Origin: an uncultured Porphyromonadaceae bacterium
GTDB taxonomy: Bacteria > Bacteroidota > Bacteroidia > Bacteroidales > UBA12481
Length of the DNA: 64,000 nucleotides
Direction: 5' to 3'
Assembly (NCBI GenBank): GCA_964355105.1
Contig: CAYHCO010000003.1
Span: forward strand, 5,577-69,576
The position numbers were made by a program, and so were the translations under genes. The notes beneath the pieces are model-generated. The model was not told where the DNA came from and did no database searches. It worked only from the letters and a program-made list of their open reading frames with translations. Of the stretch, positions 12,410-61,135 are shown one piece after another; position 1 is the first letter of the stretch; the number at the start of each line of letters is the position of its first letter.

Positions 12410-12440
12410 TAGGCCTCGCTAAAGCTCGGCTAATTATTAA

Positions 12441-12529
12441 TTAGCGCGAAGCGCATAGTTAGCGAGCGTAAGCGAGCCTATTAGCGCGAAGCGCCTTTTA
12501 GCGAACGGAGTGAGCCTATTAGCGCATGC
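12441..12529 (+). repeat. ~40-bp tandem repeat, 2.3 copies (TTAGCG-rich)
   Basis: ttagcgcgaagcgcatagttagcgagcgtaagcgagccta / ttagcgcgaagcgccttttagcgaacggagtgagccta / ttagcgcatgc. An inverted partial copy lies at 12409..12432. Confidence 0.8.
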
Positions 12530-18148: not shown

Positions 18149-18862
18149 GTGGCAGAAAAACTTTTACTTATCGGAGGCGGCGGACACTGCAAATCGTGTA
18201 TCGACGTGATACAGGCAGAAGGAAGGTTCGAGATTGCCGGGATCGTGGAGAATGCGGGGTATCAGGTTCCCGCCTTCGCGGGAATGACAGAGAAGGGTGA
18301 AGGTTCCCGCCTTCGCGGGAATGACAGAGAAGGGATTGGTGAGCTGGGAAGTGTAATGGGATACCCGGTCATCGGAACCGATAGTGAATTGCCTGAGCTC
18401 ATCAGGGTGTATAAAAATGCGCTGATCACCGTTGGCCAGATTCAGCATCCCGATATCCGGATAAAACTGTTTAACCTGATCAGGAGCATGGGCGGCCAGT
18501 TTCCGGTCATTATCTCTCCAAACGCCTATGTATCAAGGAACGCACTCGTCGGTGAAGGCACGATCGTGATGCACCATGCGGTGGTAAATACCGAGGCCGT
18601 TATCGGGGTAAACTGCATACTCAATACGGGTGCACTTGTTGAGCACGAGGCACACGTTGGTGACCACAGCCATATTTCCACCTATGCCATACTGAACGGG
18701 CAATGCAAGGTGGGAAGCCGCACCTTTATCGGCAGCCGCACGGTGTTGTCGAACAATACCGATGTGGCAGACGATACCCTGATATCAGCCGGCTCTGTCG
18801 TTCTGAGGTCGCTTGAACAACCCGGGACCTATATTGGCAATCCGTTAAGGAAAATCCGATGA
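18149..18862 (+). CDS. neuD: NeuD/PglD-family sugar N/O-acetyltransferase (hexapeptide repeat) carrying an in-frame repeat insertion
   Basis: KLLLIGGGGHCKSCIDVIQ..FEIAGIVE N-terminal fold. Left-handed beta-helix hexapeptides (GEGTIVMHHAVVNTEAVIGVNCILNTGALVEHEAHVGDHSHIS). GTG at 18149 is preferred over ATG 18104, which overlaps the flippase. Confidence 0.7.
   Translation: MAEKLLLIGGGGHCKSCIDVIQAEGRFEIAGIVENAGYQVPAFAGMTEKGEGSRLRGNDREGIGELGSVMGYPVIGTDSELPELIRVYKNALITVGQIQHPDIRIKLFNLIRSMGGQFPVIISPNAYVSRNALVGEGTIVMHHAVVNTEAVIGVNCILNTGALVEHEAHVGDHSHISTYAILNGQCKVGSRTFIGSRTVLSNNTDVADDTLISAGSVVLRSLEQPGTYIGNPLRKIR
18265..18334 (+). repeat. two tandem 33-bp palindrome-containing units (37-bp period) inside the neuD-like CDS
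   Basis: ggttcccgccttcgcgggaatgacagagaaggg occurs at 18265..18297 and again at 18302..18334. Each holds the hairpin ttcccgc-cttc-gcgggaa. Confidence 0.9.
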
Positions 18863-19860
18863 ACAACCATGTAACCATCATTGCGGAAGCCGGCGTCAAC
18901 CATAACGGAGATATCAGCACCGCTCTTAAAATGATCGAGGTAGCGGCGGTATCAGGTGCCGACTTCATCAAATTCCAGACCTTCAAAACAGAAAAGCTCG
19001 TTACGGCATCTGCACCCAAAGCCGCCTATCAGGAGATACAAACAGGGGCTGAGGGCAGTCAGTTCGGGATGCTGAAAAAACTCGAGCTCGACGAAAAAGC
19101 GCATATTGTCCTGATGGCCCATGCGCGTCAGAAGGGCATCAGGATGATCTCCACCCCTTTTGATGATGAAAGTGCCGATATGCTTAACCGGCTGAACGTG
19201 GAATTGTTCAAGGTGGGATCAGGCGACCTTACCAACATCTTGTTATTGAGGCAACTGGCCAAATTCGGTCGGCCGGTGATCTTGTCAACCGGTATGGCCG
19301 AGATGTCGGAGATCGGTCAGGCAATAGGTATCCTGGAAAAGGGCGGCCTGCCACGGTCGAAGATCACCCTCTTGCACGCCAATACTGATTATCCCACGCC
19401 CTATACCGATGTTAATCTGCGGGCCATGCTCACCATGGCGCTCGAATTCGGCATTAAAGTGGGTTATTCCGACCATACCGATGGGATTGAAGTCCCGGTG
19501 GCAGCCGTGGCACTCGGTGCTGCGGTGATTGAAAAGCATTTTACCCTCGACCGGAGCATGCCCGGCCCTGACCACAAAGCCAGTCTGGAACCGCAGGAGC
19601 TGCGTGCCATGGTGCAATCCATCAGGAATATCGAGCTTGCACTCGGCTCCTCCCGGAAAGAACCCAGTGAGGGAGAACGGAAAAACATGCCGGCTGCACG
19701 TAAGAGCATTGTAGCTGCCTGCCCGATACAAAAAGGTGAAGCTTTTACCGAGAAAAACCTGACCGTCAAGAGGCCGGGCATCGGGATCAACCCTTTGCGG
19801 TGGGACGATATTATCGGTACATTTGCCACCCGGGATTACCGGACTGACGAACTCATCTGA
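18859..19860 (+). CDS. neuB: nonulosonic acid synthase (N-acetylneuraminate/legionaminate synthase family)
   Basis: VTIIAEAGVNHNGDISTALKMIEVAAVSGADFIKFQTF plus a C-terminal SAF-like domain (KGEAFTEKNLTVKRPG). Confidence 0.85.
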   Translation: MNNHVTIIAEAGVNHNGDISTALKMIEVAAVSGADFIKFQTFKTEKLVTASAPKAAYQEIQTGAEGSQFGMLKKLELDEKAHIVLMAHARQKGIRMISTPFDDESADMLNRLNVELFKVGSGDLTNILLLRQLAKFGRPVILSTGMAEMSEIGQAIGILEKGGLPRSKITLLHANTDYPTPYTDVNLRAMLTMALEFGIKVGYSDHTDGIEVPVAAVALGAAVIEKHFTLDRSMPGPDHKASLEPQELRAMVQSIRNIELALGSSRKEPSEGERKNMPAARKSIVAACPIQKGEAFTEKNLTVKRPGIGINPLRWDDIIGTFATRDYRTDELI

Positions 19861-27810: not shown

Positions 27811-28800
27811 ATGAAATTCAGGCTTTTGATATCAATATTGATCATCCGCACCCTCACTTCCTGCGAAACGGTAAATACGCCACCGATCCCTAATGCGTTT
27901 TCGATTCCCAAGATCGGAGATACCACCACCGTTTTCATGCTTGACGGCAAAAACTCCAGTGATAAGGAATGTTCCTATTTTGCCCTGAAATTTCGCTGGG
28001 ATACCAATGCCGACGGGATTTGGGACTCGGAATATTCCACAAAATCCAGCTATACCAGCCGGTTCATCCATACCGGCTACCAGAAATACATACTGGAAGT
28101 CGCTGATGATGAAGGCAGTACCGCCACTTACACCGATTCGGTTTTTATCCTGATAAAAAACAGCGTTTCCGATACCCTGACCGACCCCCGCGACGGTCAC
28201 CGGTACCGGATCGTGAAAATCGGTAACCGCTGGTGGATGGCTGACAACCTCAAATACGGAGAGCCCGTTGATGTGCAGATCCCTCTAACCGACAACGGCC
28301 AGCCGGAATACCTGTATTTCAATAACCGGGCAGATTACAGCCATTACGGCGGTCTGTACACCTGGGTGGAGGCCAATCTCTATCCTTCCAATTACGTATA
28401 CCGGGATATTTGTCCGCCGGGTTGGAGGATTCCTACGGTGGCCCAGTGGTCGGAAGTTCTCAAAAAATACTCCTCGCCCTACGATGTTTTGTATTATTTC
28501 GGGCCCAATTCCGTTGAAAATCTCGGCATCGGAATGAACGGGTATTACCGGTACGGAGATCCCGATACACCCATGAAAGGTGAATTCAAAGGTGATAGTA
28601 TCAATGTAAGATATTGGACATCAGCTTATACCGATATTGATTCCACGCGTTATTTTACCGGCATACACTTCACCCGCGATTCGAGCTACTTCGTTCAAAG
28701 CATTGTTCGCCCCGAGTGGATCTACCATCCCCGCTTTCCGGGATTCATTATCGGGTATAAAACCCCCGAAGCCTGTTACGTCAGATGCGTGAAAGAATAG
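27811..28800 (+). CDS. FISUMP-domain lipoprotein with PKD-like domain; paralog of 882..1865
   Basis: Lipobox LTSCE. FRWDTNADGIWDSEY...LEVADDEG (PKD-like). LTDPRDGHRYRIVKIGNRWWMADNLKYG and CPPGWRIPT (FISUMP signature). Confidence 0.75.
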   Translation: MKFRLLISILIIRTLTSCETVNTPPIPNAFSIPKIGDTTTVFMLDGKNSSDKECSYFALKFRWDTNADGIWDSEYSTKSSYTSRFIHTGYQKYILEVADDEGSTATYTDSVFILIKNSVSDTLTDPRDGHRYRIVKIGNRWWMADNLKYGEPVDVQIPLTDNGQPEYLYFNNRADYSHYGGLYTWVEANLYPSNYVYRDICPPGWRIPTVAQWSEVLKKYSSPYDVLYYFGPNSVENLGIGMNGYYRYGDPDTPMKGEFKGDSINVRYWTSAYTDIDSTRYFTGIHFTRDSSYFVQSIVRPEWIYHPRFPGFIIGYKTPEACYVRCVKE

Positions 28801-28912
28801 CCGACTGCCAACTGCCGGCTGCCAACTGCCTACTGCCAACTGCCGACTGTCGACTGTCGACTGCCGACTGTCTCGTCTTCCGGGTTACGCGTTACGCGTC
28901 TCGCGTCTCGAT
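28801..28912. repeat. heptanucleotide array, 16 units (10 nnnACTG/CTGCC-type + 6 CG-rich)
   Basis: A strict 7-bp phase from the nt after TAG 28800 through the 3' end of the minus-strand YfhO-like ORF. Confidence 0.9.
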
Positions 28913-34554: not shown

Positions 34555-34624
34555 GGCAGAGGGCAGAGGGCAAAGGGCATAAATTGGGAATAAGGAATAG
34601 GGAAGAGGGAATAGGGGAGGTTGG
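34555..34624 (+). repeat. heptanucleotide array (GGCAGAG-type, 10 units) starting right after the nadB stop; left arm of an inverted pair
   Basis: ggcagag ggcagag ggcaaag ggcataa attggga ataagga ataggga agaggga atagggg aggttgg. Confidence 0.85.
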
Positions 34625-40298: not shown

Positions 40299-41904
40299 GC
40301 GGGGTTTCGGGTATCGGGTTTCGGGTATCGTGTTTCGGGTTGGTTCCGTCGGCGAAGACGAAAAGGGAGTAAAAAACGGCGAAAAAAGCAACGCCGGCCT
40401 GGGTTTCAAGAGTATCTTCATTGATCATCGAAAGAAAGATGACCAGCAGAAACATGAGGATGAAATACTTGCTTTTTCCTCTTTCGATAAACATAGGCAG
40501 GAGAATGGCACTCATCAGGATGAGGAATCCTACAATCCCGAAGGTCAGGAGGAAGGTGAGAAACTGGTTATGAGCCCTTAACCTCCAGAGGGGTTCAAGC
40601 GGTGAATTCAGCTCGATATATTTCCGGTCGAACGCGGTTTTGGTATCGCCTGTGCCCACTCCAAAAACCGGATGATCCTTAAAGATGGCCCAGCCGGTTT
40701 TCAGGTATTCGAGCCGCTGGGTTACCGAGTGGCCGCTGGGGTTTGCCCCTTTACGGTACTGGTCTATCTCCCAGATGGTTTCGTACATGCGAACATCAAA
40801 ACTCTTCGGTTTTCGGTACATGCAATTGGCAAAACCGTTCTCTATCAGCCGAATATCATCCTTGTCGAGCAGGGACACCCCATATTCATCCTTGCGCAAT
40901 CCTTTCGAGGTGAGGTAGCGGATGAGCGTATACTTGATTTCCTGGCCCTTGAGGTCGCGACCATCAAAATCGAGGCGGCTCACCCGGTTCCAGGCTTCCC
41001 GCATTTCGGTCTCACACTGGTACCATCCCACCCGGTATCCGTTTTCAAGAAACGGATTGGTGGTATCGTGCCAGTAAGGATTTCCTTTCACAGTAGCCCG
41101 GTCGGGCTGCTCCTGCATTTCCCGCACCGTATAAAAGTCAGCCACCCGCCCGCTCAGATAAAATCCTGCCAGGACAGGCACAGTAAACAATCCGACCATC
41201 AAAAACCACCTGAGCATCGGGTCCGGCCTTTTCAGCCCCCAACGCAAGGTCAGGATCCATCCGCCAATGATCAGGATGACAACGCCGGTAAGCGATTTTA
41301 GAAGGAAAAGAAAGACCAACAGGCTGAGGGCACAGGGTATCAGAATCATTCTTAGCCTTGATGAGGAAAGGGGATCAAAAATGTATCGGAGGAGGATGAA
41401 TATCGCCATCACCACCATCAGGGCAAACCGGATATGTGAGATAAAAAGTACGGATTCACGGTCGCCGGTATACGTGGCCGGTCCGAAACCCATCATGATG
41501 CTCAGGCTGATCATGGCGCCGATCAGAACGGCGAAGGTGAAGGAACCGAGAATAAAGCGCATCTCGTTATTGTTCAATGGCCTGATACTGCCCAGAACCA
41601 GGGGCATCAGCAACAGGGGCAACTTGACTTTCACGTCATTAAGACCGTACGACAGATCGGAGGTATATAGAAGACCGGCTACCGGAACAAAGAAAAGCAG
41701 TGTGAAAATCAGGATCTGGGGCCGCATTTTTATGCGCCTCCATTTCTCGTCGAATTTACCTTCGGCAAGCCAGGTTACCGCAAGGAGTATCTGCGCGGCG
41801 CTGGCCAGGTATTTTGAAAGAGGCAGGCTGACCACGGTCACGAAAAGAAAAAACAGGGTAGCGTTCCTGAAAGTTACATGCCGTTTAATCAGATCGGGGT
41901 TCAT
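40282..41904 (-). CDS. O-antigen ligase (Wzy_C) family membrane protein
   Basis: From internal ATG 41904 (MNPDLIKRHVTFRNATLFFLF..). About 10 TM segments plus a soluble insert. Signature ..LWRLRAHNQFLTFLLTFGIVGF (HN..L...E.G..G type). The track ORF's upstream 147 aa cross a promoter region. Confidence 0.7.
   Translation of the reverse strand: MNPDLIKRHVTFRNATLFFLFVTVVSLPLSKYLASAAQILLAVTWLAEGKFDEKWRRIKMRPQILIFTLLFFVPVAGLLYTSDLSYGLNDVKVKLPLLLMPLVLGSIRPLNNNEMRFILGSFTFAVLIGAMISLSIMMGFGPATYTGDRESVLFISHIRFALMVVMAIFILLRYIFDPLSSSRLRMILIPCALSLLVFLFLLKSLTGVVILIIGGWILTLRWGLKRPDPMLRWFLMVGLFTVPVLAGFYLSGRVADFYTVREMQEQPDRATVKGNPYWHDTTNPFLENGYRVGWYQCETEMREAWNRVSRLDFDGRDLKGQEIKYTLIRYLTSKGLRKDEYGVSLLDKDDIRLIENGFANCMYRKPKSFDVRMYETIWEIDQYRKGANPSGHSVTQRLEYLKTGWAIFKDHPVFGVGTGDTKTAFDRKYIELNSPLEPLWRLRAHNQFLTFLLTFGIVGFLILMSAILLPMFIERGKSKYFILMFLLVIFLSMINEDTLETQAGVAFFAVFYSLFVFADGTNPKHDTRNPIPETPHENDR
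40302..40350. repeat. heptanucleotide array (GGGTTTC/GGGTATC units)
   Basis: gggtttc gggtatc gggtttc gggtatc gtgtttc gggttgg ttccgtc. On the minus strand it is read as the C-terminal tail ..NPKHDTRNPIPETPHENDR of the ligase-like ORF. Confidence 0.85.
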
Positions 41905-56920: not shown

Positions 56921-56930
56921 CAAAAAGAAA

Positions 56931-56972
56931 GGCAGAAGGCAGAAGGCAGAAGGCAGAAGGCAGAAGGCACAA
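56931..56972 (+). repeat. perfect (GGCAGAA)x5 + GGCACAA heptanucleotide array 10 nt after tRNA-Leu
   Basis: ggcagaa x5 at 56931..56965, then ggcacaa. Confidence 0.95.
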
Positions 56973-56988
56973 GTAATTGGGCCTTTTT
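56964..56988 (+). repeat. 25-bp direct repeat, left copy
   Basis: 24/25 identical to 57981..58005. Confidence 0.9.
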
Positions 56989-61027: not shown

Positions 61028-61135
61028 ACGGTAGACGAGACACGAAACGCGAGACACGAGACACGGAAGACTGAAGACTGCCAACTGAAGACTGCCGACT
61101 GCCGACTGCCGACTGCCGGCTGCCAACTGAAGACT
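61024..61135. repeat. heptanucleotide array, 16 units (6 CG-rich + 10 GAAGACT/GCCGACT-type), beginning with the TAG stop
   Basis: gtagacg gtagacg agacacg aaacgcg agacacg agacacg gaagact gaagact gccaact gaagact gccgact gccgact gccgact gccggct gccaact gaagact. Confidence 0.9.

Follow-up and report, generated by a model that had tools for sequence, protein, structure and literature searches.

The window analysed here, 64,000 nt of contig CAYHCO010000003.1 from an uncultured Porphyromonadaceae bacterium (assembly GCA_964355105.1), contains a gene for a NeuD/PglD-family sugar acetyltransferase (18149-18862, + strand) that harbors two copies of a short hairpin repeat and remains open throughout. 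The repeat is probably a selfish, non-autonomous hairpin element, tolerated in a surface loop of the enzyme and recently duplicated in tandem. The element has a G+C-rich stem of 7 bp, a loop of 4 nt and, as its conserved foot, ATGACAG, and it has multiplied in a freshwater Bacteroidales genus. One copy probably landed in a short in-frame GGGTATC run that already filled the loop joining strands 2 and 3 in the N-terminal domain. By slippage during replication or by unequal exchange, this copy would then have been duplicated together with a few flanking bases, yielding the 37-nt period. Translation of the element would give a 22-residue, probably disordered surface loop that the enzyme tolerates, and the insertion is most likely neutral selfish DNA, not an adaptation. 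Its spread may involve a transposition-like process that recognizes the hairpin shape rather than the sequence. The mobilizing enzyme is apparently not a flanking REP-associated tyrosine transposase (RAYT; REP, repetitive extragenic palindrome).

Two hairpin copies in an open neuD gene

The 33-mer GGTTCCCGCCTTCGCGGGAATGACAGAGAAGGG is present in exactly two copies on the + strand (18265-18297 and 18302-18334), 37 nt apart. Tandem Repeats Finder reported a period of 37, 1.9 copies and 100% matches. No further copies with up to three mismatches were found in the window, and none were expected from 100 shuffles. Each copy contains the hairpin TTCCCGC-CTTC-GCGGGAA with a perfect 7-bp stem and a 4-nt loop (18267-18284 and 18304-18321), for which an RNA folding energy of about -12.9 kcal/mol is predicted. 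In copy 1, the arms occupy 18267-18273 and 18278-18284, followed by the foot TGACAGAGAAGGG. The sequence order is ...GGGGTATCA GGTTCCCGCCTTCGCGGGAATGACAGAGAAGGG TGAA GGTTCCCGCCTTCGCGGGAATGACAGAGAAGGG ATTGG.... Upstream, a GGGTATC heptamer (18257-18263, +) is the remnant of an in-frame heptamer run that fills the loop in hairpin-free orthologues. The 4-nt linker TGAA (18298-18301, +) separates the copies; its last three bases (GAA, 18299-18301) are ATC in a strain of approximately 94% identity, which yields GGGTATC across 18295-18301. Downstream of copy 2, the sequence ATTGGTGAGCTGGGAAGT (18335-18352, +) is probably the 3′ tail of the repeat unit, with a presumed boundary. Elsewhere in the genome, the spacer of 51-nt tandem units is similar to it (arrays on contig C43, ...GACAGAGAAGGGATTGGTACGGAGGGAGAAGG...); in the orthologues, heptamer sequence occupies its place.

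The two identical copies are read in different frames, VPAFAGMTEKG for the first and, one frame shifted, GSRLRGNDREG for the second, because 37 equals 36 + 1. The third forward frame contains a TGA; a third tandem unit would thus truncate the protein, as a direct reading of the sequence indicates. Five of the six frames of the element are open and the net added length is 66 nt, so the gene stays in frame. Both copies lie within one open reading frame (ORF; 18104/18149-18862), and the gene is intact. The peptides FEIAGIVENAGYQVPAFAGMTEK and EGIGELGSVMGYPVIGTDSELPELIR are predicted from translation through the repeat. A first-pass annotation of the letters and their ORFs had described the duplicated unit, its hairpins, its two reading frames and the open ORF, and all of these were recovered.

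The gene probably starts at GTG 18149, as orthologues begin at the equivalent M-x-E-K in the alignment. Its stop codon TGA (18860-18862) overlaps the neuB ATG at 18859. The product of 237 aa, identical to database protein P0001, comprises a PglD_N domain (PF17836) and hexapeptide repeats (PF00132), the combination of PglD_N domain and left-handed beta-helix that characterizes NeuD/PglD sugar acetyltransferases. The TIGR03570 profile (NeuD_NnaD), which represents the NeuD/PglB/VioB family, matched in two stretches with the insert between them, and its score of 179.5 bits exceeds the cut-off of 160.8. The motif E165-H166-E167 of the catalytic domain is invariant across the alignment. With the family cut-off passed and this motif kept, the gene still looks functional at the sequence level. 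It belongs to a surface-polysaccharide locus with the gene order Polysacc_synt flippase, neuD, neuB, neuC. A 193-nt contig of the metatranscriptome run X21 matched positions 18771-18963 of the window with 0 differences and spans the neuD stop and the neuB start, which fits a co-transcription of the overlapping genes in situ.

Independent sequencing data contain the repeat junction. The runs were inspected as Logan contigs and unitigs from 31-mer graphs, in which contigs break at the repeat, as expected. A 63-nt unitig over the junction of copies 1 and 2 (18268-18330) had 0 differences in the DNA runs X1, X2, X3 and X7, and run X4 had an equivalent 67-nt unitig (18268-18334). These five runs are lake and freshwater metagenomes from four studies, dated 2020-2024. 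The depth at the junction was close to that of the unique flanks (ratio about 1). The strain of approximately 94% identity (run X8) showed the same two-copy layout, with GGGTATC at the junction. In the metatranscriptome X21, a 67-nt contig matched 18264-18330 exactly, although an RNA library may carry DNA. A third contig of this run is the transcript of another in-frame copy of the element. The junction is not an assembly artefact, and the insert is present in RNA; the assembly chimera named as a refutation in the first-pass annotation was not encountered in several independent runs.

A repeat tract in a surface-polysaccharide gene might serve as a phase-variation switch, in which 7-nt and 37-nt units shift the frame and turn off nonulosonic acid acetylation. 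One copy would shift the frame, a third tandem copy falls in the TGA-containing frame, and the number of units varies among orthologues. However, the same two-copy allele occurred in samples from 2020 to 2024 and in the relative of approximately 94% identity, the junction was as deep as its flanks, and all 16 of the 16 nearest species-level loci were in frame. The element also resides in tsaD and gltX, normally essential genes, where switching would be lethal. A switch is therefore very unlikely. Three orthologue calls with a truncated N-terminus were considered as phase-variation alleles and rejected: P0037 has a replaced 5′ end, P0049 lies at a contig end and P0056 represents a missed GTG start; none has a frameshift in the loop.

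A repeatedly occupied loop in NeuD homologues

A total of 3,249 homologues was found. Between the GHCKSCID motif and IGTD, the window protein has 59 aa; the closest species-level relatives have 37 aa here, and distant ones (Marinilabiliales, Anaerophaga and other phyla) have 33 aa. An alignment with the solved structure of PerB breaks at the same loop, with 7 residues between two aligned blocks against 34 in the query. Distant NeuD/PglD homologues and PerB thus have only a short loop at this site, as had been proposed, and unrelated taxa do not carry an equivalent segment. The earlier estimate of about 25 added residues was approximate: the insert measures 22 aa against the nearest hairpin-free orthologues and 26 aa against distant ones.

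The loop was filled before the hairpin is seen in it. Four extra residues of the nearest relatives (GYQVSGIGYQV) are encoded by the in-frame heptamer run GGGTATC AGGTATC GGGTATC GGGTATC; the loci L001, L002 and L004 read GGGTATC AGGTATC GGGTATC GGGTATC AGGTG at the site. In another sublineage, every heptamer unit is GGTTATC. At the same spot, 13 of 34 aligned close orthologues have peptides derived from one or two hairpin copies with the stems TTCCCGC, TCCCCGC or TTCCGGC; these are read in frame 1 as GSRFRGNDKEG, in frame 2 as VPAFAGMTEKG or in reverse as VIPAKAGT/IP. A comparison of a filled with an empty site, L082 (one copy) against L002 (none), showed 31 nt inserted after the GGGT of the second heptamer, one heptamer fewer and a net gain of 24 nt. 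The inserted 31 nt lie between GGGT and ATC with GGGT at both ends, which fits either a duplication of 3-4 nt or the heptamer register.

In a loop-free tree, two hairpin-free proteins are the neighbours of the window protein, and they lie within a clade that otherwise consists of one-copy members. A separate clade, well supported, is formed by the reversed copies. The neuD loop must have gained the element independently at least twice, and more gains or precise losses are likely, in a tree that is poorly resolved. Inserts of 30-50 aa with different, non-hairpin sequence were observed in the same loop of P0025 and P0027 (alignment A1), so the loop takes other insertions too. At locus L128 (1-200), unrelated sequence stands in place of the upstream flippase gene and of the 5′ end of neuD, and the start codon is missing, which suggests a rearrangement or a scaffold join.

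An AlphaFold2 model was built from the orthologue alignment. The hairpin-coded residues P41-G64 (41-64) were modelled as coil with a predicted local distance difference test score (pLDDT) below 50, between the strands 27-34 and 72-77 of the N-terminal domain. The model check thus places the insert in a low-confidence coil between two predicted strands, and the segment may be regarded as a tolerated, presumably disordered surface loop.

Alternatively, the extra loop might be an adaptive, conserved functional segment of a NeuD subfamily, for instance a partner-binding loop. The loop holds some extra sequence throughout the clade, and internal copies genome-wide favour two Pro/Ala/Gly-rich frames. 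Its content, however, differs wholly among close relatives: heptamer-coded GYQVSGIGYQ, one or two hairpins, either orientation and other inserts. The same peptides occur in unrelated enzymes, and the segment is modelled as disordered. These observations make a functional segment extremely improbable.

The element family in the source genome and its relatives

The source genome (4.40 Mb in 132 contigs, 48% G+C, assembly 97% complete) was searched by pattern (perfect hairpin followed by TGACA), and a profile built from these copies was then applied at E < 1e-3. The pattern search found 57 perfect hairpins with TGACA and the profile a total of 68 copies, while a reversed-pattern control gave 0. 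Six stem types were detected (TTCCCGC, TCCCCGC, TCCCGGC, TCCCGAC, TCCTCGC and TCCCGTT), each perfectly complementary to its partner arm. The copies were selected for perfect stems, so that a formal covariation count on them would be circular. The consensus of the element is GG-T(Y)CCNNC-NNNN-GNNGG(R)A-TGACAG. Tandem arrays have a 51-nt period, and two classes of 5′ arm are distinguished.

Coding status was assessed from a codon log-odds score, trained on the genome's long ORFs, of the 40 codons flanking each copy on either side. The score places 24 copies in frame within genes and 22 at a gene edge, where they continue an ORF; the flanks of the remaining 22 are non-coding. A manual check found that copy 1 in neuD and the copy in GT1 had been under-called, which raises the internal copies to about 26-27. 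The genome-wide count suggested in the first-pass annotation thus gives about a third of the copies for each of three settings: in frame within genes, at gene edges and in non-coding sequence. Profile matches across the element or flanking it on both sides were obtained for 7 host genes. They include the glutamate-tRNA ligase gene gltX (two copies; contig C6:11933-13813 of the source genome, G000), tsaD (C35:17456-18568), prmC (three copies; C52:3341-4333), the GDP-fucose synthase gene fcl, an aminopeptidase N gene (pepN) and a glycosyltransferase gene. In-frame colonization of genes in the manner of Rickettsia palindromic elements (RPEs), which the first-pass annotation had inferred from neuD, is supported by these matches. 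Among the internal copies, the frame PAFAGMT is used 9 times, VIPAKAG 8 times and SRLRGND 5 times, mostly Pro/Ala/Gly-rich sequences, and Arg- or Cys-rich frames are found mainly at gene edges. This frame bias suggests purifying selection on the translated sequence.

A second M1 peptidase carries 2-3 + 5 copies. It is a 765-aa M1-peptidase-like protein with a signal peptide (C43:345-2639), in which 2-3 copies lie near the N-terminus and 5 tandem copies (51-nt period, VPAFAGMTEKGLVRRE x5) lie ahead of a C-terminal domain that looks like those of the type IX secretion system. With more than 20 copies over 28 kb, contig C43 as a whole is a hotspot.

The window class of the element (class A, stem TTCCCGC) adjoins GGGTATC-like heptamers in 12 of 17 copies, compared with 6 of 51 other copies (p = 9e-6) and with 10% of random 64-nt windows. 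This association favours a spread without transposition, in which the hairpin passes among GGGTATC arrays by gene conversion or template switching and the array in the neuD loop received it. In L082 and at several loci, the register at which the hairpin breaks the heptamer is also the same, and other lake-metagenome contigs run from the hairpin into ATCGGGTATC.... On the other hand, only 3 of the 49 arrays of at least three GGGTATC-like units in the genome contain the hairpin. Most copies have class B stems and no heptamers, are situated at unrelated loci and possess a conserved 5′ arm of their own, and a foot and stem pattern conserved across the phylum suggest that a protein recognizes them. 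For class A, gene conversion through heptamers is a partial alternative that leaves the heptamer-free majority unexplained; as a general account it is unlikely.

Other repeats were observed alongside the element. A glycosyltransferase gene (C68:5741-7132) contains one of the GGGTATC-like arrays, which there reads in frame as GIGYQVSGIG. A 38-nt tandem repeat of 2.2 copies with small GCGCGAAGCGC-type palindromes (window 12440-12525) belongs to a different repeat family. Heptanucleotide arrays are located in the window at 28800-28870, 34555-34616, 40302-40341, 56929-56973 and 61066-61135, with the units GCCGACT (x10), GGCAGAG, GGGTTTC, AAGGCAG and GACTGCC.

The distribution among relatives is uneven. 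The 19 genomes of the genus contain 0-238 copies each, other genera of the family 0-25 and 16 other families of the order 0-1; the reversed-pattern control gave 0-1. At least one match was present in 68 genomes of a phylum sample of 300. Bursts of 111, 79, 59, 33, 30 and 29 copies occurred in a few unrelated Bacteroidota lineages, where the stems include TTCCTGC. Patchiness and bursts of this kind are typical of a mobile element. The complete genome of a congener (G018) often has its copies in inverted pairs that lie back to back, 75-120 nt apart. On its 5.4-Mb chromosome (G018:C1), 81 of 91 TCCCGRC-type copies lie between 0.17 and 2.43 Mb, and the pairs are like REPINs (REP doublets forming hairpins) or bacterial interspersed mosaic elements (BIMEs). 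A strand bias by replichore was considered for this genome and rejected; in the full list for two stem types, + and - copies are interleaved and often paired.

A broader proposal, tentative and rather doubtful, is that the hairpin-plus-ATGACA family represents a phylum-wide class of mobile single hairpins in the Bacteroidota, moved by an enzyme other than a flanking RAYT, with one subfamily homing to GGGT^ATC. Coding loops with such runs, for instance the beta2-beta3 loop of NeuD, would then be recurrent landing pads, rewritten in either orientation and frame.

Mobility and comparison with known systems

A first candidate is a canonical REP mobilized by a RAYT (TnpA-REP) encoded in the genome. 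The size, hairpin shape and copy number of the element, the arrays of period 51 and the inverted pairs resemble REPs and BIMEs, and the genome and most congeners carry Y1_Tnp genes. Y1_Tnp was detected in 16 of 16 hairpin-rich genomes of the family and in 5 of 9 hairpin-poor ones (p = 0.01), a weak correlation that is probably confounded by other REP families. The RAYT subclass 2.6 of Bacteroidetes is reportedly flanked by atypical secondary structures (PMC6006769). Approximately 40 Y1_Tnp loci were surveyed in 23 genomes, namely that of the window, those of 14 congeners or family members and 8 hairpin-rich ones of distant lineages. None of these loci was immediately flanked by the element. 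Flanking hairpins, where present, belong to other families, and several loci had none. The single Y1_Tnp gene of the window genome is truncated by a contig end and has an upstream hairpin of a different family, CCCCAGAC-TGAA-GTCTGGGG. In G007, three copies of the element lie approximately 200 nt upstream of a Y1 gene, outside the inverted CCCC...GGGGTTAA pair of the gene itself. The complete 2.6-Mb genome G095, of the same class, contains 29 copies (stem TTCCTGC) and gave no Y1_Tnp match.

Like REPs, which are imperfect palindromes of 20-40 nt in many copies, the element is a short palindrome of high copy number. GTAG or CGTC, however, is absent from the hairpin foot on both strands, and the location is not mainly extragenic: 24-27 of 68 copies, at least 35%, are genic and in frame, and 22 lie at gene edges. 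The element is REP- or RPE-like in behaviour, yet it fails membership in the REP/RAYT system. Mobilization by a RAYT is accordingly quite improbable.

A second, REP-like family was observed beside the Y1 (RAYT-type) genes of the genus, with the structures CCCCNNN-CTGAAG-NNNGGGG followed by TTAA and CCCCCGA-ATTTAT-TCGGGGG. It was seen at L081 1336-1357 (G000:C88), L096 1240-2200, L101, L102 and L103. At L096 and L103, the two loci with both flanks read, the copies on one side are inverted relative to those on the other, and the arrays of 51-nt period at L096 represent a textbook REPtron.

Several points weigh against a tolerated, mobile selfish element as the explanation of the neuD insert. No enzyme linked to the family was found, and no clear target-site duplication was found beyond the possible GGGT/GGT repeat. 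The structure model is mediocre (mean pLDDT 69, predicted template modelling score 0.50). The fold search, with PerB, PglB (PglB-ATD) and PglD on top, gave a poor superposition (TM about 0.35) and says hardly more than the sequence alignment. That the loop is translated and the enzyme active is a prediction. In the census, coding and non-coding copies were told apart by a home-made codon score and not by a gene caller, and contigs built from 31-letter words cannot reveal coexisting alleles of one or three copies, which have no unique words. A selfish hairpin element that is tolerated in the NeuD loop nevertheless remains the probable explanation.

[quoted passage not shown] The element shares these properties; in contrast to MITEs, a single unit has no terminal inverted repeats, and back-to-back pairs occur in G018. 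Neither a parent insertion sequence nor a clear target-site duplication was found for the family. Heptanucleotide tandem repeats are comparable in the in-frame GGGTATC run that served as landing site, and differ in that a hairpin cassette within a run is not a simple slippage array.

Published REP superfamilies are defined by a GT[AG]G or CGTC tag at the foot (PMC3733652, PMC6006769), and several bacteria are reported to have intragenic REPs with GTAG or CGTC tags (Di Nocera et al., 2013, PMC3733652). Like REPs in REP/RAYT systems, the element forms short, high-copy hairpins that occur as singletons, tandem arrays and inverted dimers with compensated stem variation. As in the intragenic REPs, some copies are genic; those REPs encode 20-30 extra residues (PMC3733652). 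The element differs in its foot, ...A-TGACAG (TGTCA on the other strand), in the lack of a flanking Y1 transposase gene and in a far higher genic fraction.

RPEs are palindromic families inserted in frame in many unrelated genes, housekeeping genes included (Ogata et al., 2000, 2002, as summarized in PMC10969869). Nearly half of the 44 RPE copies of R. conorii are located in ORFs (PMC10969869). The element agrees with RPEs in the in-frame insertion into unrelated genes, in the apparent tolerance of the host protein and in peptides that recur in unrelated proteins. Its in-frame hosts are neuD, gltX (2 copies), tsaD, prmC (3), fcl, two M1 aminopeptidases (1; 2-3 + 5), glycosyltransferases and others. 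The differences concern size and host: RPEs measure roughly 100-150 bp and occur in an obligate intracellular alphaproteobacterium (PMC10969869), whereas the element spans 33-51 nt with one 18-nt hairpin and a single 7-bp stem. The two share no sequence, as judged from size and architecture only. In addition, the element often lies within heptamer runs and is read in at least three frames and on both strands, and its host is a free-living freshwater Bacteroidales bacterium.

Such repeats have practical consequences for annotation. They yield spurious peptides (PAFAGMT, VIPAKAG, SRLRGND), inflate ORFs, break short-read assemblies and split profile matches, as for NeuD and PrmC here. No paper on this family or its peptides was found, and searches with AFAGMT, PAKAGI, RLRGND and FRGNDG gave only chance matches. 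The insertions also offer a natural test of which loops in proteins accept about 10-25 additional residues, and the family offers a tractable entry point toward a new hairpin-specific DNA-processing enzyme.

To our knowledge, in-frame colonization of genes by palindromes is textbook matter only for Rickettsia, with sporadic reports for REPs. Selfish palindromes that are read through in protein loops are known as such. New are the hairpin family, the heptamer landing site that was hit repeatedly and in both orientations and the absent RAYT link. Copies reside within normally essential genes (tsaD, gltX, prmC), and one protein loop was hit repeatedly in related species. RPE-like biology is thereby extended, at high density, from Rickettsia to a free-living, uncultured freshwater lineage of Bacteroidales.

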